Origin: a bacterium
GTDB taxonomy: Bacteria > Babelota > Babeliae > Babelales > JABGSX01
Assembly: GCA_018647505.1 (NCBI GenBank)
Contig: JABGSX010000006.1
Location: forward strand, 245-64,244
Length of the DNA: 64,000 bases
Direction: 5' to 3'
A program made the position numbers and the translations under genes. This document shows, in pieces, positions 23,936 through 33,580 of the stretch. How positions within the stretch are numbered: the first letter of the stretch is position 1; every line of letters starts with the position of its first letter. Under the pieces are notes generated by a model that saw only the letters and a program-made list of their open reading frames with translations, did not search any database and was not told the origin of the DNA.

Positions 23936-25081
23936 ATGAGTAAAAAAGATTATTATGAAACTCTAGGGGTAACAAAAAGTGCCTCTCAAACAGAAATAAA
24001 AGCAGCCTACCGAAAATTGGCTCTTAAACATCATCCAGACAGAAATCCAAACAATAAAGAATCAGAATCCAAATTCAAAGAAGCCGCATCGGCATACGAA
24101 GTTCTATCCAGTCCAGAAAAAAGAAAACAATACGATCAATTTGGTCACGAAGGTTTCCCCAATATGGGTGGCGGTGGAAACTCATGGGGCCAAGACGGCA
24201 TGAGTATGGATGACATTTTTTCAAATTTTTCTGACATTTTTGAAGGATTCTTTGGAGATTCATTCGGCGGAAAAAGACAACATAAAAGCGTAGGACCAAC
24301 ACCCGCAAGAGGGCACGATTTAGCTAAAGAAGTTAAAGTAACACTTAAAGAATCATTCTTAGGTGTAAAAAAAGATGTTGATTTTTACCACTTTGTTCCA
24401 TGCGAAAATTGTAATGGAAAAGGGGTAAAAGCCGGCACATCTGTTTCTAAGTGCTCAGCATGTCAAGGCCATGGTCAAATTCAATATCGCCAAGGTTTTT
24501 TCTCGTACAGCCAAACGTGTGGAAGCTGCACAGGCCAAGGTTACACAATTCCAAATCCGTGTCCAGGCTGCTCCGGACAATCCCGCATACAAAAATATGA
24601 CAAGTTTAAAGTAACAATTCCTGCTGGTATTTTTGATGGCGCAGAATTGCGAATTACCGGAAAAGGTGACGCTGGCATTTATGGTGGATCAGCTGGCAAT
24701 TTGTATCTGCGTGTTAACGTCGAAGAAGATAAAAAATTCAAACGTATCGACAATGATCTTGTCTGCACTGTTATGCTAACATACCCACAATTAGTTCTTG
24801 GCTGCCAAATAGAAATTGAAAATATCGATGAAACAAAAGAAACTGTTAAAATTCCAAAGGGCTGCCCTTCTGGAGAAAAAATTACAATTAAATCAAAAGG
24901 CTTTTCGTCACTAAAAGGTAGCAGCCGAGGAAACTTAATTATTAAGACAAAATGTCACATTCCTAAAAAACTACCAACCGAAACAAAACAACTTTTAAAA
25001 GATTATTCTGAAAAAATTGGAACCGACACAACGGATTCTGATTCCAGTATTACAGGATTTTTTAAAAAATTTTTAGGTTGA
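23936..25081 (+). CDS. dnaJ: Molecular chaperone DnaJ
   Basis: 381 aa. J-domain HPD (KHHPDRN), G/F-rich region, four CxxCxGxG zinc repeats. Confidence 0.97.
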
Positions 25082-25615
25082 CGGTCTAAGTCTGAAAATT
25101 GTTCTGGCTATTTCATTGTCTAGAAATTTTATCTGTCCATCTTTGTCAACAATAACAGCAGAGCACCCTACCGGTCCATCCAAAGACCCTTCCGGGTCTC
25201 TCGCTTCAACAACAGCACAAAATTCATTGTAAGGTTCCCAAACGGCCGTGCGTTCAATCCCGCTCAACCACAACCATGCTCCTCCACGCAAGCGTTTCTG
25301 CAACTCAATTCCAGCCGCCATCATAACTCGGCCACTTGTAAAAATTTGGTTTCCCTCACCCATAAAAGAGACATCAAACGATTCCAAATATCTTGCCCGA
25401 GCCTGGTCAAACAATCTTTTTAATTTAACAGAATATGAAGCAACCAAAATTGGAACAACGGCTACATCCCCACCCTCTTTTACTTCATCATCCTTTTCTT
25501 CTTCGCGATAGTCTTCGGCCCTAGAATCACAACACCAATTCCAACAGCACGCGGCACTCATATATCCACGACCTAAAAAGAAAACGATACTTATAAATAA
25601 AAATATTTTTTTCAT
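25073..25615 (-). CDS. Small secreted/lipo-protein, island member 13 (paralog group A)
   Basis: 180 aa. [37 protein letters not shown]. Overlaps the dnaJ 3' end by 9 nt (convergent). By-eye similarity to 25627-26121. Confidence 0.7.
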
Positions 25616-25626
25616 TTTTAACCCCT

Positions 25627-26121
25627 CTAAACTGCAAATTTAAAAAGCGCATCCCCTTGTTCCGCCGACAAAATTTTTGCAGTAGACCTACCTACATAAA
25701 CATATCCATATGAAGCTGTATCCGCACCATCCAGTTCTTCTACGCATCTTACACTAGCTACAACAACATTTCCTCCTGCAATCTCCTTTGTTACATCAAT
25801 TTCATCTGTAAGCAAGGCCCATTGTCCACCTTTTTGCCGCTCAACCCGCATAGCAGCTTGAACCATTTCCCTCGCTAAATCAGTGCGGTCTTTTTTTCTA
25901 TTTTGAAAATATTTTACTCTTGCTTTTTCAAGCTCCTTCTCCAAAGAAAGGTCTCTTGCTTGAGGCATTTCAACTTCTTCTTGCCTAGAATCACTTGAAA
26001 AGCCCAAAAGCTTTTTTAAGCAATCACACCCCAAACTACTTGTAGTTATTCCGAGTAAGGATAAAAGTAATAAAATTTTGTTATTTTTTTTAATAAAACA
26101 ATACATCTTCATTAAAACCAT
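25627..26121 (-). CDS. Small secreted/lipo-protein, island member 12 (paralog group A)
   Basis: The ORF-track start at 26130 is TTG. In-frame ATGs lie at 26121, 26112 and 26106. Signal sequence ...KILLLLSLLGITTSSLGCDC. The C-terminal half aligns by eye with member 13. Confidence 0.65.
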   Translation of the reverse strand: MVLMKMYCFIKKNNKILLLLSLLGITTSSLGCDCLKKLLGFSSDSRQEEVEMPQARDLSLEKELEKARVKYFQNRKKDRTDLAREMVQAAMRVERQKGGQWALLTDEIDVTKEIAGGNVVVASVRCVEELDGADTASYGYVYVGRSTAKILSAEQGDALFKFAV

Positions 26122-26126
26122 CAAAA

Positions 26127-26681
26127 TCAATATTCTGACCCTTTAAAACAACGAGTAATAAACCCAACCTTGTCAGAATACGAAATTTGCACATCACATC
26201 CATCTCCAGCCACAATGCTCAATTGTCCACGACAACCATCTCCAGGAAACGAAACAAATATTGAAAACTTTTCTAAAACAGGAAGCGTCGTTAGCCTTAC
26301 TCTCTTTATATTCATAGCAATAACAGATTCCGCAAATTTACAAATCTCGTGTGTATCCGAAGCTTTCATTTTTGCAAAATAGGCCCAGATAATATCCCAA
26401 CACGCACGACAAAAATTTCTCTCCACATTGGCTTCAACAACACCGCCCTCGGAATAAAAACTCTCGCTAGAAAAAACTGTTCTTAAAAAATCTCCAATCC
26501 CCCTTGGACCATGACCTTCTAATATTTTGGCTGCCGTGCCAGCCCGCCAAACACTACCAACGGTCACAATACTTTGGGCAAGACTCTTTAACTCTATAAC
26601 CTCTGCACTTGCGCAACACAAAATGGAAGGAAAAATTAATAATATTATCCACAACCATTTAACTCCCCAAACTTTATACAT
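26127..26681 (-). CDS. Small secreted protein, island member 11 (possible group A relative)
   Basis: Start set at ATG 26681 (SD AAGGGGGA). MYKVWGVKWLWIILLIFPSILCCASAEV. Confidence 0.65.
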   Translation of the reverse strand: MYKVWGVKWLWIILLIFPSILCCASAEVIELKSLAQSIVTVGSVWRAGTAAKILEGHGPRGIGDFLRTVFSSESFYSEGGVVEANVERNFCRACWDIIWAYFAKMKASDTHEICKFAESVIAMNIKRVRLTTLPVLEKFSIFVSFPGDGCRGQLSIVAGDGCDVQISYSDKVGFITRCFKGSEY

Positions 26682-26700
26682 TTTAAACAAGTCCCCCTTT

Positions 26701-27153
26701 TTAAGTATCAGGCTCCAAACCAAAAGACCAAGGGCCTAACAGATCTTCATCACTACTACCCAAACTCTCTAAGTATTCCTCCCAAGGAAACTTTTCCCTT
26801 TCAGGTTTTGGCCTCCAAGTTTTAACAGTTTTCAACTTTACAGGCACAACTCTTTTAGCCTCTTCTTTTTTTCTCTTTGCAGAAGAATATGAATCTCCAG
26901 CTCGTTCTAAAAAACCTGTATATCCACCATTTTCCAGAAAAGCATCCACACTCGCAATTTGCATTCTTAAAGCTGTCATATTTCTTTGTAACTGCATGAT
27001 TACCGCACGCCCAGCGTTTTGCAACCTTCTAGAACGCGCTGATTCATGCCTAGAAAGTACAGCACCACGGCTTCTGTATGCCCCAAATTGTGAAGAAGAA
27101 ACAAGATAAGTTGAAAAAGAAAAAAGCAAAATCACTATTAAAAAATTTTTCAC
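26701..27153 (-). CDS. Small secreted Arg-rich protein, island member 10
   Basis: 150 aa. GTG start with SD AGGGAG. MKNFLIVILLFSFSTYLVSS. First gene of a tightly packed four-gene unit. Confidence 0.65.
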   Translation of the reverse strand: MKNFLIVILLFSFSTYLVSSSQFGAYRSRGAVLSRHESARSRRLQNAGRAVIMQLQRNMTALRMQIASVDAFLENGGYTGFLERAGDSYSSAKRKKEEAKRVVPVKLKTVKTWRPKPEREKFPWEEYLESLGSSDEDLLGPWSFGLEPDT

Positions 27154-27245
27154 GATTCGCTCCCTTTAAAAAGGATTTTTCTTTATGATTGGTATAGCAT
27201 ATAGGAAAAAAATTGGAGATGGTATACTTTTTGAAAAAATTCTTA

Positions 27246-27277
27246 ATAAAAAGCAGCCCCCAAAAAACAAGGGCTGC
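27246..27277 (-). terminator. Hairpin terminator after island member 9
   Basis: GCAGCCC (27253-27259) pairs with GGGCTGC (27271-27277). On the minus strand the hairpin is followed by a T-run. Confidence 0.7.
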
Positions 27278-27306
27278 AAAGTTTAACTTTTTATATGTTT
27301 TTATAT

Positions 27307-27615
27307 TTAGATTCTGGTTAGATCTTTCCTGGAAGAAGGACCAGTATCTGTGGCGCCTGTAACACCACCGGTATGAACACCACCAGAACCACCTTTAAAA
27401 CGACGGAACGACATCAAAGCTTCAAAAGCTCTTGCAGCAAGACCTTTCCCCGGCACTAAAGCTCTTCCTGTTGGTACGTAAGCCTTGCCACCACGATCTG
27501 TTTTTATCTCAGCCCCTTTTCCTGCGCACGCACCCAAAAAACACGTTTCTTTATCACCCGCACTTGCCTGAAAAACATAGGCTAAGATAACAGCTGTTAT
27601 CAAAATTCGTTTCAC
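27307..27615 (-). CDS. Small secreted Gly-rich protein, island member 9 (conserved-signal-peptide group B)
   Basis: 102 aa. GTG start with SD GAAGGA. MKRILITAVILAYVFQASA. Confidence 0.7.
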   Translation of the reverse strand: MKRILITAVILAYVFQASAGDKETCFLGACAGKGAEIKTDRGGKAYVPTGRALVPGKGLAARAFEALMSFRRFKGGSGGVHTGGVTGATDTGPSSRKDLTRI

Positions 27616-27725
27616 GTTTTATCCTTCGTAAAATATTTTTAATATAATAGCTTAATGAACACTTAAAAAGGCGACCGCATTTTACAAAGCGGTCGCCTTT
27701 TTACTTATTAAATTTTTATATTTTC
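27616..27725 (-). repeat. Intergenic module copy 1 (3' flank, terminator, leader)
   Basis: Shares AATTTAATAAGT, the GGCGACCGC/GCGGTCGCC hairpin and the TAAGC..ATTA leader with 28122-28276 and 28544-28700. Shorter than the other two copies. Confidence 0.8.
27665..27702 (-). terminator. Hairpin terminator (module copy 1)
   Basis: GGCGACCGC (27670-27678) pairs with GCGGTCGCC (27689-27697), flanked by A and T runs. Confidence 0.85.
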
Positions 27726-28121
27726 CTAATCGCCAGTACCGCCACGAGACTCACCCAAAGCACCTCCTAGTCTGCTTCTGAATTCATCTAATACACCAAG
27801 ACTTTCACCATGTTCGGCAACGGTTCTAGCAAGACCTTCGACAGTTTCTTTTGTTGCGAAAGGGACAAGATCACCTCTTTTTGCACACTCTGCAAGGTCA
27901 CCGTGGACTACCCTATCTCTTTCTAGCTCCACAACTCTTTCTTGAAGTCTCGTAACCAATCCATGAGCTTTTACACCTAAATACGCAGCTCCGACTACTA
28001 ACAGAGCCCCACCAGTTACCTGCGCAGCTCTTCTTCCTGAAATCCTCGGTAAGCGACGTTCAGCTGCACTTGCTTGTGCCACACATGCCAAAAAAATAGC
28101 GGCTATCAAAATTCGTTTCAT
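27726..28121 (-). CDS. Small secreted/membrane-anchored protein, island member 8 (group B)
   Basis: 131 aa. MKRILIAAIFLACVAQASA, then the Gly/Ala-rich hydrophobic helix VTGGALLVVGAAYLGV, then an Arg/Glu/Leu/His-rich tail. SD AAAGG. Confidence 0.75.
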   Translation of the reverse strand: MKRILIAAIFLACVAQASAAERRLPRISGRRAAQVTGGALLVVGAAYLGVKAHGLVTRLQERVVELERDRVVHGDLAECAKRGDLVPFATKETVEGLARTVAEHGESLGVLDEFRSRLGGALGESRGGTGD

Positions 28122-28276
28122 GTATTACCTTTCGTGAAAACTTAGTAATGTTAAAAATGTTTAATACAATGGCTTAACTTTATAGCACATGAACACTTGG
28201 TTGTAAACAAAAAAAGCAACTACCACATAAAACAATAATCGCTTTTTTACTTATTAAATTCTTATATTTTCTATGC
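28122..28276 (-). repeat. Intergenic module copy 2 (3' flank, decayed terminator, promoter, leader)
   Basis: Aligns by eye along nearly its full length with 28544-28700, except that the hairpin arms have decayed. Confidence 0.85.
28179..28207 (-). promoter_or_regulatory. sigma70-type promoter of island member 8
   Basis: Minus strand: TTTACA (28207-28202), 17-nt spacer, TATAAA (28184-28179). The same arrangement is conserved at 28601-28629. Confidence 0.55.
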
Positions 28277-28543
28277 CTACCAATCCAAGCGCTCTTCGAC
28301 GACTCTTATTGTTGCTAACCTTGTCTCACGTTCACGCGCAAGCTCTTCTTCGGTCTTGGCATCAGTATCTACAGCAACCTCTATAGAAGGCCCACCTAGT
28401 TCACGACTTAGTTTGCTAACAGCTTCTTTTTTTGCACAGGCAGCACATTTTACACACACCTTACACTTATGCCGTTTTCCGTCACTTGCGCTTGCTTGTG
28501 CCACACATGCCAAAAGAATAGCCACTATAAAAATTCTTCTCAT
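28277..28543 (-). CDS. Small secreted Cys-motif/acidic protein, island member 7 (group B)
   Basis: 88 aa. MRRIFIVAILLACVAQASA, then HKCKVCVKCAACAKK (CxxCxxCxxC), then a Glu/Arg-rich tail. Confidence 0.7.
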   Translation of the reverse strand: MRRIFIVAILLACVAQASASDGKRHKCKVCVKCAACAKKEAVSKLSRELGGPSIEVAVDTDAKTEEELARERETRLATIRVVEERLDW

Positions 28544-28600
28544 TTGTTAACTTTCGCCAAAACCTTATAATTTAAAAAATGCTTAATACAACGGCTTAAT

Positions 28601-28629
28601 TTTATAGCACATGAACATTTGGTTGTAAA
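28601..28629 (-). promoter_or_regulatory. sigma70-type promoter of island member 7
   Basis: Minus strand: TTTACA (28629-28624), 17-nt spacer, TATAAA (28606-28601). Starts directly after the terminator T-run. Confidence 0.55.
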
Positions 28630-28630
28630 C

Positions 28631-28670
28631 AAAAAAGGCGACCGCCTTTTGCAAAGCGGTCGCCTTTTTT
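28631..28670 (-). terminator. Hairpin terminator (module copy 3)
   Basis: GGCGACCGC (28637-28645) pairs with GCGGTCGCC (28656-28664), flanked by A and T runs. Confidence 0.85.
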
Positions 28671-28700
28671 ACTTATTATTTTCTTTAAAAAGAACTTTTA

Positions 28701-29234
28701 TTATTCGGCGTATGCTCCTGAAGTAAGAGCAACATGCTCGCCTAGAGCGGTTTCCACAGCTACAATTCTTCCTGCGTGAGATCCCAAGGCATCACTATGT
28801 GCTCCAATAGCTCCACCATGTTCTTCAAGAGATGCTTCATGTCTGGAAAGAGTATCCCCCTGTCCGGAAATAACGCGACTCTGTGCGGAAAGAGTTTCTT
28901 CATGTCTCGCTGACGCTTTTCCCAATACTCTCAACGACGCACCTAAATCAGCTGAATCTGTTAACGCTGACAATCGTGCAGCCATTCTTCCACCAAGCCC
29001 CCAAGCCTTTTTACCACCAACATAAAGTAAGGCTAAGGCTCCGGCGCCACCAGCAACTTTGGCTTGTGTTCTATAATCAACACGTGTAAAACGATCTGTT
29101 GCATAACTTCCAGCACCAAGTGTTGCTACAACCGCCGCTCTTTTACCCCATTTTTTAGCGGCCGCTTTTTTTCCGCCAGCCATCATGTGAGCTCCGACAG
29201 ACAACAACAATATTGCAAAAAGTAAACGTTTCAT
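28701..29234 (-). CDS. Secreted/membrane-anchored protein with His-heptad tail, island member 6
   Basis: Start set at ATG 29234 (SD AAAGGG). MKRLLFAILLLSVGAHMMA, G/A-rich helix AGGAGALALLYVGGKKAW, then nine x-H-x-x-x-[LI]-x heptads at the C-terminus. Confidence 0.75.
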   Translation of the reverse strand: MKRLLFAILLLSVGAHMMAGGKKAAAKKWGKRAAVVATLGAGSYATDRFTRVDYRTQAKVAGGAGALALLYVGGKKAWGLGGRMAARLSALTDSADLGASLRVLGKASARHEETLSAQSRVISGQGDTLSRHEASLEEHGGAIGAHSDALGSHAGRIVAVETALGEHVALTSGAYAE

Positions 29235-29343
29235 AAAAAAAACCCTTTCTGAGTTTGAAAAACCTATTAAACACAACTTCCTACCAACTTCAACCTAGTT
29301 TATAACATAGAAGATTTTTAAAGTAAACCCCACAAAATAACAC

Positions 29344-29814
29344 CTAGCAATGTCTTGCTTTCCAACTTGTTTTAGCACTTTTTGCTATATAATATACCGA
29401 GGGAAAATTTCGATTTAAAAATCTTAAAAATCGTCCATCATCACTGCATGAAATTCGCCGTGTAAGAACGCCCTCTATTTCTGGTTGTTCTTGGTCGGCA
29501 ACGGCATTTTCACCTTCGTAACAGCCTCCTTGTGACTTTTCTTCAAGCTTTTTGCTTAAACTTGGACGTTCTTCTTCTTCATGATGTTCCGAATTATTTG
29601 GGGGATTTTCAGAATCCTCTGGCCCACATGGCATATCATCTTCAACGAGAACCGACGGTCCACGATAAGAATCATAAGCTTTTTTTCCAGCTACAGTTAA
29701 ACATGCCAGAACCGCAATCCCCGCAGCTACATTTTGCCCTTTACTCATCTCAGCCCTGGAGGCAAAGTGAACACTCATGGCAAGAAAAACCAGCATCAAT
29801 AAACATTTTTTCAT
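29344..29814 (-). CDS. Secreted/membrane-anchored acidic protein, island member 5
   Basis: 156 aa. MKKCLLMLVFLAMSVHFASRA, second helix VAAGIAVLACLTVAGKKAY, then an acidic segment. Confidence 0.7.
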   Translation of the reverse strand: MKKCLLMLVFLAMSVHFASRAEMSKGQNVAAGIAVLACLTVAGKKAYDSYRGPSVLVEDDMPCGPEDSENPPNNSEHHEEEERPSLSKKLEEKSQGGCYEGENAVADQEQPEIEGVLTRRISCSDDGRFLRFLNRNFPSVYYIAKSAKTSWKARHC

Positions 29815-29999
29815 GTTTGTACTCCTTGTGTAATTGTACGATTAATAAAACAGTATGGTTTATAATATGATTGATATTTTTTACCACAGAAAAAATGATT
29901 TGCCAAGCAAGTTTGATGTTGAATTATCCGTTCTTACTTAGTGGAATAAGCGATAGCGAATGTGGCCAAATGTATACGAACATAAAGAAAAGATTTAAA

Positions 30000-30314
30000 T
30001 TAATTTAATGGCGCCTCTGCAGCCCGAACACCATCGCCTGTATCTAACTCCATTTGCAATTCAGCTTCAAATTGTTTTTGTCTTGCTTGTGCTGCTTCTT
30101 TTTGCTTCGCTTCTCTATCCGCCTGTGCACGTTCTAATGCAAGATCTCGTTGGTCTTCTTGAACTCCACGTATAGTATTGGCCGTCATCATTCGCCTTAA
30201 CTTAGAAGTAATGACCGAAACTTGTCTTGGAACTGCGGATTGTTCTTCTTTGTCAGCTGAATACATAAATACACAAAAGCTCAAACAAAAAAATAAACTA
30301 ATAATTTTTTTCAT
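30000..30314 (-). CDS. Small secreted charged (Q/E/R/A-rich) protein, island member 4
   Basis: 104 aa. MKKIISLFFCLSFCVFMYSA. SD TGGAG. Confidence 0.7.
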   Translation of the reverse strand: MKKIISLFFCLSFCVFMYSADKEEQSAVPRQVSVITSKLRRMMTANTIRGVQEDQRDLALERAQADREAKQKEAAQARQKQFEAELQMELDTGDGVRAAEAPLN

Positions 30315-30359
30315 AAAAACTCCATATTTAATTTTTCTTGAATCTACAATAGATTTTGA

Positions 30360-30722
30360 TTACTTTCTTTTAGCCGCACTAACACTAGATCGCCAAGCAG
30401 AAAAAACTTTTTTTACCAACTCTTTATGATCAATAAAAATACTTCTCATTTCATCCATGCCCTGTTCACGGCTTTCCACCTCTTCTTGATACATACTCTT
30501 TGAATAGTTTGTTACTGTAGACCAATTGTCATCATCATCGCAAGGCACAGCCTCCCCGGGCAATTCAACAACAGAACAATTAGGCCTTAAAAGGCTCTCT
30601 ACTGTTTCACAACCATCCGTGCCTCCTGTCGGTTCACCAAAGGCTCCAGCGTATACACGATTATCAGCCCCCCTCAACCAAAAAGTGAAAAACAATAAAA
30701 GACAAAACAAAGCTCTTTTCAT
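30360..30722 (-). CDS. Small secreted protein, island member 3
   Basis: Start set at ATG 30722 (SD AAGGA) rather than the ORF-track TTG at 30743. MKRALFCLLLFFTFWLRGADN. Confidence 0.65.
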   Translation of the reverse strand: MKRALFCLLLFFTFWLRGADNRVYAGAFGEPTGGTDGCETVESLLRPNCSVVELPGEAVPCDDDDNWSTVTNYSKSMYQEEVESREQGMDEMRSIFIDHKELVKKVFSAWRSSVSAAKRK

Positions 30723-30784
30723 AAAATCCTTAGAAATATTCAAAAAAATTATAATGTTATAGAGTAAAAAGTTTACAAAAAAAA

Positions 30785-30819
30785 GAGGAAAAAGACTATT
30801 AATTTAAGTCTTTTTCCTC
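30785..30819 (-). terminator. Hairpin terminator after island member 2
   Basis: Perfect 12-bp stem: GAGGAAAAAGAC (30785-30796) pairs with GTCTTTTTCCTC (30808-30819). On the minus strand it is followed by a T-run. Confidence 0.85.
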
Positions 30820-30838
30820 AAAAAACAATTTTTACTTT

Positions 30839-31372
30839 TTATCTACTAATACTCCTTTGCTTTCCATCAACCCCACGGTTAAATTGAGCCATCAATGCAT
30901 CAAGAGAATCAAAATCACCGGACCTTTTCGCACTCGATGGTCTTGGTTCCGGCTCTTCTCCGCCCTCATCTAAAGCGTCCAAAACTCTTGTGGGATCTCG
31001 GCGAAGCCTGGTTGCAACTCCGCGAGGAACAAACGAAACCCTTCTACCGCCACGCTCCACTTGCAGGAGACTTGTTGGGACATGCGGAACACCTTTTACA
31101 GCAAGTCTTCCCATTGCACAAAATAACGGTGGCACAGCTGGTGTTTCATCTGCGGTCTCAGCATGGGCTTCTGTAGCATAAGCTTCTCCCCCCGAAGGAG
31201 GCGCATCTTCATGACCCTTCGCCCCAAATATTTTCATAACCAAAGCTGATAAAAATAATTTGTGTGGTTCGCTCGGGCAGGCACCATAGGCACCGGCACG
31301 ATGCCTTGACGCACCCTCTAAAATCCCAGTCGACAAAACTATAAACAAAAAAAGAGCTGCTATTTTTTTCAT
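30839..31372 (-). CDS. Secreted Ala/Gly/Arg/Pro-rich protein, island member 2
   Basis: 177 aa. MKKIAALFLFIVLSTGILEGA. SD AGGGAA. Confidence 0.7.
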   Translation of the reverse strand: MKKIAALFLFIVLSTGILEGASRHRAGAYGACPSEPHKLFLSALVMKIFGAKGHEDAPPSGGEAYATEAHAETADETPAVPPLFCAMGRLAVKGVPHVPTSLLQVERGGRRVSFVPRGVATRLRRDPTRVLDALDEGGEEPEPRPSSAKRSGDFDSLDALMAQFNRGVDGKQRSISR

Positions 31373-31404
31373 GAAATGGTTCCCTAAATTTTGAATTTTA
31401 CAAC

Positions 31405-31737
31405 TTACCTCTTACTTAAAGCACACGGATCATCTAAAACAATTCTAATTCCATCAAGTAGTCCAACGTCAGCTCTAGAAGAATCATCTTCCCCTTCTAA
31501 ACCATCATAACGCTCATGCCGTGGAGAAAATACATCAAATTGATTGCGCGGATACGACAAACCTCTAAAACCCGGATGCTTAACGTCTGTCATATCAACA
31601 CATCTATGAACAACCGGCCTTAAAAGAACAAATCTTGCCGCGCATGCAACAAGACCTTTTTGTGCTCCAGGATCTCCAGGAAAAGATTTTTGAGAAATCG
31701 ACAACAAAACAATCGCAATCATAACAACCTTCTTCAT
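31405..31737 (-). CDS. Small secreted protein, island member 1
   Basis: 110 aa. MKKVVMIAIVLLSISQKSFPG. SD GGGGGGAG. Confidence 0.7.
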   Translation of the reverse strand: MKKVVMIAIVLLSISQKSFPGDPGAQKGLVACAARFVLLRPVVHRCVDMTDVKHPGFRGLSYPRNQFDVFSPRHERYDGLEGEDDSSRADVGLLDGIRIVLDDPCALSKR

Positions 31738-32079: not shown

Positions 32080-33189
32080 TCACACACCTAACTTTCGCTT
32101 CTTTAAACTTTTTTGCGAAAATACTATTTTCCTTTTTTCTTTTATGCTCAATTGATTAAGAACATAATAAAAAAAATCACGGTCCGCACCTTTTACCACC
32201 GCCTGCTCATGAGCCTCCGACAAACATACCGGATAGCCTTGGCCCTTTTTGCTCTGATCAAAACAAACCGATGCTACAACATCAACCAAACTTTGATCGT
32301 TTGCAATCCATGCTGGAAATTCAACACGAGCAACCTCTTGCCCAACGTTCATGTAAAAAAAATGCGGAACTAAGTGTTCCGGATACTGTTTGGTAATTCG
32401 ACTGTTGTTTTTAAAAACAATGGACCTCTGTCCCTCTTGCAAATAAAAACTTGCTATCGAGCTGTCGACCAAGTGATCAACTGAATTTGCCGAGTTATAT
32501 TTACTGTGATCAAAAGCACATAACTCTAAACGAATCAAATTTACAAGCTCCTTGCTTTTTGGAAAGCTTATGTAGCTTGCTGTTATTATTTTTTTCTCAT
32601 ACACCCGCTCAAGAAGAGCGATATAGATTGACAAGAATCTTTGTTTTATTTCATGTCCATAATTTTCCAAATGCCAAAAAATTAATGAGCCATCAAAAAG
32701 CAAAATTGTCCCGGGATTTTTTGAAGCATAATCAATACCGACCTTGAATTCCAGTTCTTGCCTGCGGCAATCTACAATCTCAGATGAAAAACTTTCTGCA
32801 ATATCAGAAACATCCTTCATTGAAAAAACATACGGAACAGTGATCATTTTTGCAGGAATATAATTTTTGGAATAATTAAGATGAACAATCCCTACATTAA
32901 CCAAAAAACAAGATGCCCCATAATGCCTATCGGGATAAATTTGGGAACCATCAACGGCCACAACCTTGTATTCAGAACTTGGCTTAACATTATATTTTCT
33001 ACCAAGCAATCCACCCCAATGTGGTACAAGCCACGGACTTTGAGACGCCTTAACCTTTTGATCAAAAGTACTCTCTTGAGAAATTTTGGTCCACACTTTT
33101 TCTGCACGCAAATATTCATCTGAAAAGTCTAAAAATAATTCATCCGTCGCTAAAGACAAGGCTTTTACAACCTTGGCACGGTCAAGCAT
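32080..33189 (-). CDS. NurA-domain-like nuclease (tentative)
   Basis: 369 aa. VVAVDGSQIYPDR and LLFDGSLIFW (two DGS blocks), and GQGYPVCLSEAHEQAVV near the C-terminus. This matches my memory of the NurA 5'-3' nuclease domain pattern. Start overlaps the sufU stop by 8 nt. Confidence 0.55.
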   Translation of the reverse strand: MLDRAKVVKALSLATDELFLDFSDEYLRAEKVWTKISQESTFDQKVKASQSPWLVPHWGGLLGRKYNVKPSSEYKVVAVDGSQIYPDRHYGASCFLVNVGIVHLNYSKNYIPAKMITVPYVFSMKDVSDIAESFSSEIVDCRRQELEFKVGIDYASKNPGTILLFDGSLIFWHLENYGHEIKQRFLSIYIALLERVYEKKIITASYISFPKSKELVNLIRLELCAFDHSKYNSANSVDHLVDSSIASFYLQEGQRSIVFKNNSRITKQYPEHLVPHFFYMNVGQEVARVEFPAWIANDQSLVDVVASVCFDQSKKGQGYPVCLSEAHEQAVVKGADRDFFYYVLNQLSIKEKRKIVFSQKSLKKRKLGV

Positions 33190-33580
33190 TTTTATCTCGA
33201 TATTTTTTTATTCCATCTTGAATTGCTCTCAACGACAAAACTGCGCATTTTATTCGCGCAGGACCAAGCTCCATTTTGATCAAATTTAAAACATCATGTT
33301 CTTCTAGTTTATCAATTTCCTTAATAGTCTTTCCCTTACAAAACTCAGTAAGTATCGATGCTGTTGCCATACTTATCACGCAACCGTCTCCACTAAATTT
33401 TATTTCTGTAATAACACCATTATTGACCTTCGCATCTATATTAACCTGATCACCACAGGTTGGATTGTGATGCAAACTAGAAATGTCTGGGGTTTTCAAT
33501 AAACCTTTGTTTTTTGGATTTTTGTAGTGCTCCTGCATGTGATGCGCATATAGATTTTTAATGCTCATTTTGTGCTTCAC
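33182..33580 (-). CDS. sufU: SufU/IscU-type Fe-S cluster scaffold/sulfur acceptor protein
   Basis: 132 aa. NPTCGD, GDGCVISMATAS and a C-terminal KCAVLS cysteine. Confidence 0.85.
   Translation of the reverse strand: MKHKMSIKNLYAHHMQEHYKNPKNKGLLKTPDISSLHHNPTCGDQVNIDAKVNNGVITEIKFSGDGCVISMATASILTEFCKGKTIKEIDKLEEHDVLNLIKMELGPARIKCAVLSLRAIQDGIKKYRDKNA

Follow-up and report, generated by a model that had tools for sequence, protein, structure and literature searches.

How do three neighbouring genes come to carry nearly the same expression and export signals in front of mature proteins that bear no resemblance to one another? The question is raised by a 64,000-nucleotide stretch of bacterial DNA (GenBank assembly GCA_018647505.1, contig JABGSX010000006.1, positions 245 to 64,244 of the forward strand; hereafter the window), in which each of three small genes, designated A, B and C, is preceded by a copy of one block, as read directly on the minus strand. 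In the direction of transcription, the block takes in a terminator-like hairpin behind the upstream gene and then a promoter-like site, a leader and the signal-peptide codons of the gene that it precedes; the mature-coding remainder of each gene is called its payload below. The original prediction, made from the letters of the sequence, proposed either that recombination had placed one module before different payloads or that a strongly constrained module is accompanied by payloads that diverge very fast. The account that we consider probable, with room left for doubt, is that A, B and C belong to a tandem family of exported-protein genes and that partial gene conversion or duplication spread the block between their payloads or made its copies alike.

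The three intergenic segments are copies of one block, and the positions first proposed for them all hold. A repeat search recovered a direct repeat of 161 nt with 84% identity (28060-28220 and 28482-28642), together with a 90-nt repeat family whose three copies span the start codons of A, B and C, and relaxed blastn aligned 28263 to 28060 with 28685 to 28482 (205 nt, 80.5%); the copies before B and C are about 80–87% identical over ~205 nt. The longest identical runs between copies measure 17, 18 and 25 nt, and the intergenic copies have a G+C fraction of 0.26–0.30. Copy 1, which precedes gene A, carries three deletions, which have cost it both promoter boxes (−35 and −10) and 16 nt of the leader, as the original prediction had implied in assigning a promoter to copies 2 and 3 only. 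No further copy was found in ~74 kb of this genome, that is, in the window and in 10 kb to its left, where housekeeping genes were encountered; the repeat itself greatly exceeds what chance would give. Elsewhere, a metagenome scan with the signal-peptide alignment returned 599 pattern matches, none of which was confirmed, and a DNA pattern fitting all three copies gave four chance matches on unrelated contigs, in a collection that does not include the locus itself; viral contigs and plasmids contained neither relatives nor further copies.

Both ends of the block are abrupt, with identity dropping to the level of shuffled sequence within ~5 nt. When B and C are compared in 20-nt windows, 14–19 of 20 positions agree outside the hairpin and 15–19 of 20 in five windows up to 28061, after which the counts are 6, 3, 3 and 5; the 150 nt past the break give 0.52, against 0.52 ± 0.018 for shuffled sequence. 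Conservation had been predicted to stop abruptly after about 19 codons, and both the pairwise windows and blastn place the break at nt 62 of the open reading frame (ORF), two codons past the residues Q-A-S-A. On the 5′ side, the block begins no more than ~15 nt from the stop codon of the gene upstream; between copies 1 and 2 the border is the stop codon itself, the TAG of gene B aligning with a second in-frame TAG that lies 6 nt past the stop of gene C. No frame-shifted similarity was detected in any other frame by tblastx across B, C and the payloads.

Within the block, the promoter-like site TTTACA-17-TATAAA occurs in copies 2 and 3 exactly where it was first reported (28207-28179 and 28629-28601, both minus) and, with up to three mismatches allowed, nowhere else in the 64 kb, shuffled sequences giving an expectation of 0. 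It is a candidate promoter of the sigma-70 type, agreeing with the consensus at 5/6 positions in each box; promoters of Dependentiae are uncharacterised. Together with a site upstream of the next gene, D, these two make up three of the four matches to the promoter-like pattern in the window, where 0.93 would be expected. The spacer is identical at 16/17 positions between copies 2 and 3, the leader is ~85% conserved and the 3′ flank 75–84%. Leaders are ~50 nt long and A/U-rich, with AAAGG or GAAAG 7–9 nt ahead of the start codon, and RNA folding of those of B and C predicted no stable structure (z = +0.8 and +1.0).

The hairpin GGCGACCGC-N10-GCGGTCGCC is likewise restricted, in the 64 kb, to the two positions at which an intact copy had been noted, 27670-27697 (hp1) and 28637-28664 (hp3), where 0 would be expected. 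The middle copy (hp2, 28215-28243), which the original prediction took to be decayed, proved otherwise: it folds with 15 pairs followed by a U-run. Its 9-bp core differs from that of hp1 and hp3 by nine transitions, and 9/9 stem pairs are nevertheless kept as Watson–Crick or G·U pairs in the minus-strand RNA; in three pairs both partners are changed (two G-C to A-U, one C-G to U-A), and three are now G·U. These three G·U pairs would be A·C mismatches on the opposite strand and are valid in the sense RNA only. Such preservation of pairing suggests selection for a hairpin in the sense transcript, namely one that terminates transcription of the gene upstream. Like intrinsic terminators, the three hairpins are each followed by T5–T7; each folds more stably than its shuffled versions, and their stems are better conserved than their loops. 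The element forms a perfect palindrome bordered on either side by A-runs and T-runs, and a search of the block against Rfam returned only sub-threshold matches caused by this hairpin.

The first 19 residues of A, B and C consist of MKR or MRR, 12–13 hydrophobic residues (Kyte–Doolittle 15-residue mean > 2) and Q-A-S-A, and the three strings, as well as the descriptions of the payloads behind them, had been correctly given in the original prediction. By a rule-based reading these N-termini have all the features of Sec-type signal peptides with a signal peptidase I (SPase I) layout, and export is predicted. No canonical lipobox was found in any of the three; B and C have F/L-L-A-C at residues 10–13, which is non-canonical at −2, and A has Tyr in place of Cys13. 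The Pfam family LPAM_1 scored 12.6 bits against a cut-off of 20, and for A alone. Between B and C, the signal-peptide codons differ at 7/57 nt, two codons by synonymous changes only, and are about as divergent as the non-coding part of the block. Having the same signals for transcription, translation and export, the three genes are presumably co-expressed.

Past the block, as had been claimed, the mature parts of A, B and C cannot be aligned with each other, their scores being those of shuffled sequences (z = −0.2 to 1.4). The payload of B probably has a relative, in the neighbouring gene D. The mature parts of B and D align with a score of 76 against 35 ± 6 for shuffles (z = 6.9–7.3, with 0/1000 shuffles reaching 76); shuffling of residues within blocks of 10–20 residues gives z = 6.2–6.5, reversed controls score 32, and over four kinds of shuffle test z is 6.2–7.3, with at most 1 in 2000 shuffles reaching the observed score. 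When every array protein of the window and of two relatives is paired with the others, this pair is the second strongest of 231. The two have in common a basic linker, a hydrophobic helix that is rich in Gly and ends in K-A-H/W-G-L, and heptads containing His (EHGESLG, EHGGAIG). Homology of the two payloads is probable on these alignments, and no stronger grade is given because composition-adjusted BLASTP is marginal. Neither the upstream region of D nor its signal-peptide codons resemble the block (z about 0). An AlphaFold model of B, computed with no alignment, is all-helical at low confidence, its mean pLDDT of 44.6 being too low for a fold search.

A further gene upstream of D, at 29344-29814 (gene 29344), joins the two groupings. 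Its similarity to D (z = 4.5–5.0) is confined to the hydrophobic segment, and its region from promoter to signal peptide aligns weakly but collinearly with the block (z = 8.1 against B and 3.1 against C), which makes it a possible distant relative of the module. As read from these alignments, similarity at the locus is reticulate, because the 5′ region of D is unlike the block, whereas gene 29344 lies near D in its payload and near the block in its 5′ region: the block groups A, B, C and, faintly, gene 29344, and the payloads group B, D and gene 29344. The last three have the same architecture of transmembrane segment and heptads, and at least part of the set is therefore probably one old tandem family. 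Searches for B and D among 5.8 billion proteins found for each only its own cluster, at E values up to 10, and a full HMMER search of 1.84 billion representatives with D gave two weak matches, both to its heptad-repeat tail. The heptads of D (28701-28910, aa 110–172) have a DNA periodicity of 42 nt; they weakly match two proteins: P0131 (431 aa, E = 3.5e-6), in the heptad stalk that accompanies its YadA-like C-terminal anchor, and P0132 (220 aa, SHGxTIS repeats, E = 2e-4).

The copies of the block are themselves a mosaic, their nearest neighbours changing by segment. In the 3′ flank copy 1 goes with copy 2 (33 nt, 94%); in the hairpin copies 1 and 3 agree at 25/27 positions and copy 2 at 10/27; in the signal-peptide segment copies 2 and 3 agree at 53/62 and copy 1 at 41–46/62, and the first six codons pair A with B. 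Informative sites are clustered accordingly along the block (29 runs against 39.3 expected, P = 0.003 in a runs test). The part of the original prediction by which recombination put one module before different payloads is supported in its core by these mosaic sites and by D, a probable old paralogue of B with an unrelated 5′ region; its extension to cassette-like diversification is not.

A history that would produce this pattern starts from an old, lineage-specific tandem family of small Sec-exported proteins (A, B, C, D and probably gene 29344). Each gene would have formed its own transcription unit, with a sigma-70-like promoter, a ~50-nt leader with a Shine–Dalgarno motif, a 19-residue signal peptide, a mature part and a terminator. 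Homology-dependent recombination would then have copied or homogenised, among three neighbours, the whole stretch from the terminator of one gene to the signal-peptide codons of the next, promoter and leader included. The mature-coding parts, by then far diverged or without homology, would have stopped the exchange tracts where homology ends, at the stop codon and the cleavage site. Afterwards the copies would have drifted to 80–85% identity, copy 1 losing its promoter boxes and hp2 gaining its structure-preserving changes.

Several observations weigh against this account or limit it. The consensus promoter scan did not pick the sites of B and C, because the −10 box has A in place of the final T at position 6. 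The roles of promoter, terminator and signal peptide are read from consensus, and we infer them, together with co-regulation and with recombination as the process. Nine random transitions would keep all the pairs of hp2 with P = 0.065 under a simple model, which is marginal. The mosaic can also reflect segment-specific changes of rate on single branches, through hairpin decay, promoter loss or a different upstream gene, and with three sequences it is supportive and not decisive. For B against D, composition-adjusted BLASTP on the single pair gives 27% identity over 104 aa at E = 0.03, and tblastn against a larger database did not recover the match. The search for module copies reached ~74 kb of the genome, beyond which more copies are possible. 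Finally, there are only three copies and one clonal population, and polarity and timing are therefore not derivable.

The strongest competing history is one in which a portable block of terminator, promoter, leader and signal peptide was fused by illegitimate recombination to independent ORFs, so that A, B and C never had a common mature part; we regard it as possible but doubtful. Its borders would be expected where they are found, exactly at the cleavage site and the stop codon, and payloads A and C have no counterpart among 5.8 billion proteins, nor elsewhere in the window or in related loci, where tblastn found no origin for the payloads. The same conclusion was reached for the erp genes of Borrelia (PMC10016077). 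What it fails to accommodate is the architecture common to B, D and gene 29344 and the faintly module-like 5′ region of the last, which point to an old tandem family, as well as the restriction of the module, over the ~74 kb covered, to this one cluster. Base composition also speaks against it. The G+C fraction of payloads A to D is 0.46–0.49, and at third codon positions (GC3) 0.24–0.32; for the whole array of small genes to which they belong mean GC3 is 0.286, against 0.294 for the housekeeping genes of the window (P = 0.43). The payloads are therefore real, long-resident coding sequences, and neither recent imports nor young ORFs from non-coding DNA. The present data do not separate this history from gene conversion among far-diverged paralogues.

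A bolder version, in which a portable express-and-export module repeatedly captures new or unrelated ORFs in a RecA-based, integrase-free cassette array, is improbable. Payloads could then be gained, lost and reshuffled, because each is flanked by direct repeats of the block. In speaking of unrelated payloads and of cassette-like diversification, the original prediction went beyond the data, given the architecture of B, D and gene 29344, the lack of a recombinase within 10 kb and of variants (see below), and identical runs of 17–25 nt.

Slightly less credible again is that A, B and C are ordinary tandem paralogues, with the block, dense in signals, held by purifying selection and the mature parts driven apart by point mutation under diversifying selection, which corresponds to the second explanation offered at the outset. 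No part of the block lacks a plausible function, conservation is higher in the hairpin stems than in the loops, and the secreted proteins of host-dependent bacteria often evolve fast. Constraint of this kind would not, however, be expected to hold the spacer (16/17) and leader (~85%) as firmly as the functional boxes, or to leave the signal-peptide codons (7/57 nt) as divergent as non-coding DNA. Nor is there a gradient, since identity falls stepwise from ~85–95% to random in ~5 nt; the payloads, of 69, 83 and 112 aa, retain no residual DNA or frame-shifted similarity; and the payload of B has a probable paralogue, D, with an unrelated 5′ region. The second explanation offered at the outset is not supported.

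Programmed variation, in which the direct repeats would serve as recombination sites for deleting, duplicating or exchanging payloads at high frequency, appears very improbable. The block does repeat on both sides of each payload, so that unequal crossing-over is possible in principle, and the vsp/vpma loci of Mycoplasma offer an analogy (PMC2268961). Gene tables for 10 kb on either side of the array list no recombinase or integrase family, the genes are all co-oriented, and two of the three have their own promoter-like site. Independent contigs that carry the flanking NurA gene or gene B contain no structural variants, the array being identical in all at 100% identity. For homologous exchange of the RecA type, 17–25 nt of identity is marginal, at or below what is required, and the longest identical runs between the copies just span this range. 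An active cassette or phase-variation system is unlikely.

Hardly tenable, finally, is the idea that the hairpin and its flanks are a mobile palindrome of the repetitive extragenic palindromic (REP) or miniature inverted-repeat transposable element (MITE) kind, inserted independently, or that the repeat is an assembly artefact: although hp1 and hp3 are near-identical (25/27) between flanks at 80–85% and form a perfect palindrome with A- and T-runs on both sides, only two perfect copies exist in the 64 kb, hp2 occupies the homologous position between the same flanks and differs by pair-preserving transitions only, the repeat runs ~150 nt past the hairpin into coding sequence, and the locus was assembled independently, by different assemblers, from at least six samples at 100% identity and is therefore not an artefact. 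The features on which the argument rests are listed in Table 1.

Table 1. Positions in the window of the block copies, their parts and the genes around them.
Feature	Positions	Strand	Description
Gene A	27307-27615	minus	102 aa, GTG start
Gene B	27726-28121	minus	131 aa
Gene C	28277-28543	minus	88 aa
Gene D	28701-29234	minus	177 aa from ATG; own signal peptide, hydrophobic helix, nine xHxxxL(S/G) heptads
Gene 29344-29814 and upstream region	29344-29900	minus	156 aa; hydrophobic segment resembles that of D
Module copy 1 (before gene A)	27554-27728	minus	same block with three deletions
Module copy 2 (before gene B)	28060-28276	minus	repeat and alignment evidence
Module copy 3 (before gene C)	28482-28700	minus	from the stop-codon flank of D to nt 62 of ORF C; recognisable likeness to copy 2 from 28685
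Promoter-like site, candidate for gene B	28179-28207	minus	TTTACA-17-TATAAA (TGcTATAAA)
Promoter-like site, candidate for gene C	28601-28629	minus	TTTACA-17-TATAAA, with TG separated from the −10 box by one base (TGcTATAAA)
Promoter-like site upstream of D	29300-29327	minus	TTTACT-17-TATAA (TGtTATAAA); type and spacing as in the module, no wider likeness
Leader and Shine–Dalgarno motif of gene B	28122-28178	minus	AAAGG; direct reading
Leader of gene C	28544-28600	minus	A/U-rich, weak Shine–Dalgarno motif GAAAG
Predicted signal peptide of A	27559-27615	minus	GTG start, MKRILITAVILAYVFQASA
Predicted signal peptide of B	28065-28121	minus	MKRILIAAIFLACVAQASA
Predicted signal peptide of C	28487-28543	minus	MRRIFIVAILLACVAQASA, 19 codons
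Payload A	27310-27558	minus	83 aa, Gly/Ala/Lys-rich, orphan
Payload B	27729-28064	minus	112 aa: basic linker, hydrophobic Gly-rich helix (~aa 32–50), His-containing heptads
Payload C	28280-28486	minus	69 aa: CxxCxxCxxC cluster, then acidic, probably helical tail; orphan
hp1, candidate terminator of gene B	27670-27697	minus	stem as in hp3; −27.4 kcal/mol, z = −7.7
hp2, candidate terminator of gene C	28215-28243	minus	AGCGATTAT-N11-GTAGTTGCT, then U-run; 15-pair stem, −11.8 kcal/mol, z = −2.9
hp3, candidate intrinsic terminator of gene D	28637-28664	minus	GGCGACCGC-N10-GCGGTCGCC; A-run before, U-run after; −31.5 kcal/mol, z = −9.3; picked by terminator scan
Terminator-like hairpin past gene A	27253-27277	minus	separate from and unrelated to hp1–hp3; terminator scan and folding
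dnaJ	23936-25081	plus	flanks the array of 13 ORFs
nurA-nifU	32080-33580	minus	other flank of the array of 13 ORFs

Genes A, B and C are part of an array of 13 co-oriented small ORFs (25073-31737), all 13 with hydrophobic N-termini, between dnaJ and nurA. GenBank records the proteins of the locus as hypothetical proteins HN446_00530-00550, and ten array proteins compared with Pfam and NCBIfam gave no family above threshold. In a scan of genome contigs, the best relative of the DnaJ protein, at 60% identity, was that of a Candidatus Dependentiae single-cell genome, and the homologues of NurA are Dependentiae/TM6 proteins, the closest of them just 57–59% identical; because of these distances the host is placed, by protein comparison, in a fairly isolated lineage of marine Dependentiae (TM6).

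Both relatives with NurA at 57–59% identity (L088 and L089) have arrays of small ORFans with signal peptides directly after nurA, in which no 5′ module common to the small signal-peptide genes was detected. The gene at 30000-30314 and a 97-aa protein of L088 (z = 9.4) are the sole recognisable protein common to the window and the relatives' arrays. In the syntenic Dependentiae single-cell genome AM-311-O15 (L007), the interval between dnaJ and nurA holds two large genes unrelated to the array. The intervals compared are 25073-31737 in the window, 10839-13324 in L007, 5175-7882 in L088 and 1122-4183 in L089. Because its content differs in this way (13 small ORFans, other small ORFans or two large genes), the interval is, on this comparison, a hypervariable island of ORFans that are exported by prediction. 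Such an island in the window fits the finding for the cultured marine dependentian C. destructans, in which 44% of coding sequences have signal peptides, ORFans being over-represented among them (PMC6561590).

Many array proteins of the window (25073-31737) show clustered cysteines immediately behind the predicted signal peptide, for example CKVCVKCAAC, and so do proteins of L089 (1617-4183; WWQCLCC, FCGC); these clusters could be disulfide knots or lipidation sites. A 55–60-nt intergenic element with a terminal inverted repeat, GTTCGTATACATT...AGTAAGAACGG, occurs once in the window (29926-29981, minus) and twice in L088 (4913-4965 and 7896-7957), where the two copies bracket the array of small secreted-protein genes. 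It is conserved between the two genomes, whose NurA proteins are 57% identical, has no Rfam match, and closes with an 11-bp stem in an RNAalifold prediction; an unidentified small RNA is one possibility, an element that bounds the variable island or serves its recombination another.

Repeats of other kinds were observed elsewhere in the window. Four tandem TPR paralogues of ~600 aa lie on the minus strand at 10975-18468, with blocks of 60–85% DNA identity at a spacing of ~1.7–2.1 kb. From the 5′ part of a TilS-like gene (18522-19493, PF01171) and the region upstream of it, three fragments (61–84 nt, 87% identical) recur at 16429-16661 against 18543-19203, in the intergenic DNA after the TPR gene 14546-16372; they look like a relic of the segmental duplication that produced the TPR paralogues. 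The ORF at 62731-63966 contains coding tandem repeats of 33 nt (at least seven copies) and 63 nt (four copies), at 62930-63235 and 63624-63938.

Comparable arrangements are known from surface-protein families. In the erp genes of Borrelia a conserved promoter/operator, leader peptide and first mature (sorting) residues are followed by mature parts of diverse origin (PMC10016077). The erp genes of Borrelia burgdorferi (OspE/OspF/Elp, with their upstream homology box) present the same evolutionary pattern as the A/B/C locus, and by this analogy the consequence of the block would probably be the same, namely co-expression and a common export route. Erp proteins are lipoproteins whose genes lie on cp32 prophage plasmids, a single locus on each replicon, under defined regulators that bind the operator, whereas genes A, B and C are chromosomal, stand in tandem between dnaJ and nurA, and have an SPase-I-type Ala-Ser-Ala in place of a canonical lipobox; their block also takes in the terminator of the upstream gene. 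With no sequence relationship detected and no Pfam or NCBIfam family at threshold for the array proteins, only the evolutionary pattern is common to the two, and not membership of the erp family.

In the vsp/vpma loci of Mycoplasma, the 5′ untranslated region and the signal-peptide codons are highly conserved, with no significant homology beyond (PMC2268961). The vsp, vpma and vlp genes are clustered, with a conserved 5′ part and an unlike remainder, as are A, B and C, but they encode lipoproteins with an AAKC lipobox and repetitive mature parts, and they switch through inversions by an adjacent Xer-type recombinase or through promoter slippage. At the A/B/C locus there is no recombinase in 10 kb, no lipobox, no inversion (all 13 array genes have the same orientation), no variant and no repeats of the Mycoplasma kind, which sets it outside these families.

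Partial gene conversion in the 5′ regions of bacterial tandem paralogues leaves sharp tract ends where homology is lost and mosaic neighbours, as seen here; it is usually inferred from many genomes and a phylogeny, whereas the process proposed for this locus is inferred from three copies in one clonal population. Integron cassettes and the orphan modules of polymorphic toxins, in contact-dependent inhibition (CDI) and Rhs systems, likewise consist of different payloads separated by a repeated element. The A/B/C locus differs from them in having no integrase in 10 kb, no attC-type site, no large delivery domain and no toxin–immunity pairs; its repeated element is made up of ordinary expression and export signals, and the hairpin, a perfect G+C stem with a U-run, is typical of a terminator and has promoter and leader behind it. 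The locus is a fresh example, from Dependentiae, of an evolutionary pattern already known from the surface-protein families of Borrelia and Mycoplasma.

Dependentiae live as parasites inside protist cells and are uncultured or barely cultured; ORFans with signal peptides make up a large share of their genes. The locus provides a concrete case, on a small scale, of such ORFans gaining identical expression and export signals while encoding different proteins, by what appears to be the process seen in the erp and vsp/vpma surface proteins. The present finding is local, comprising three copies and orphan proteins in one clonal population. Should a complete genome contain more copies, the block would be a handle for co-regulated secreted proteins, its set of promoter, leader and signal peptide could be used for expression work in the phylum, and whether the sharing of modules drives the diversification of effectors would become testable. 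If the reading as a portable module were true, the locus would represent an engine for the birth of effectors in a host-dependent bacterium.

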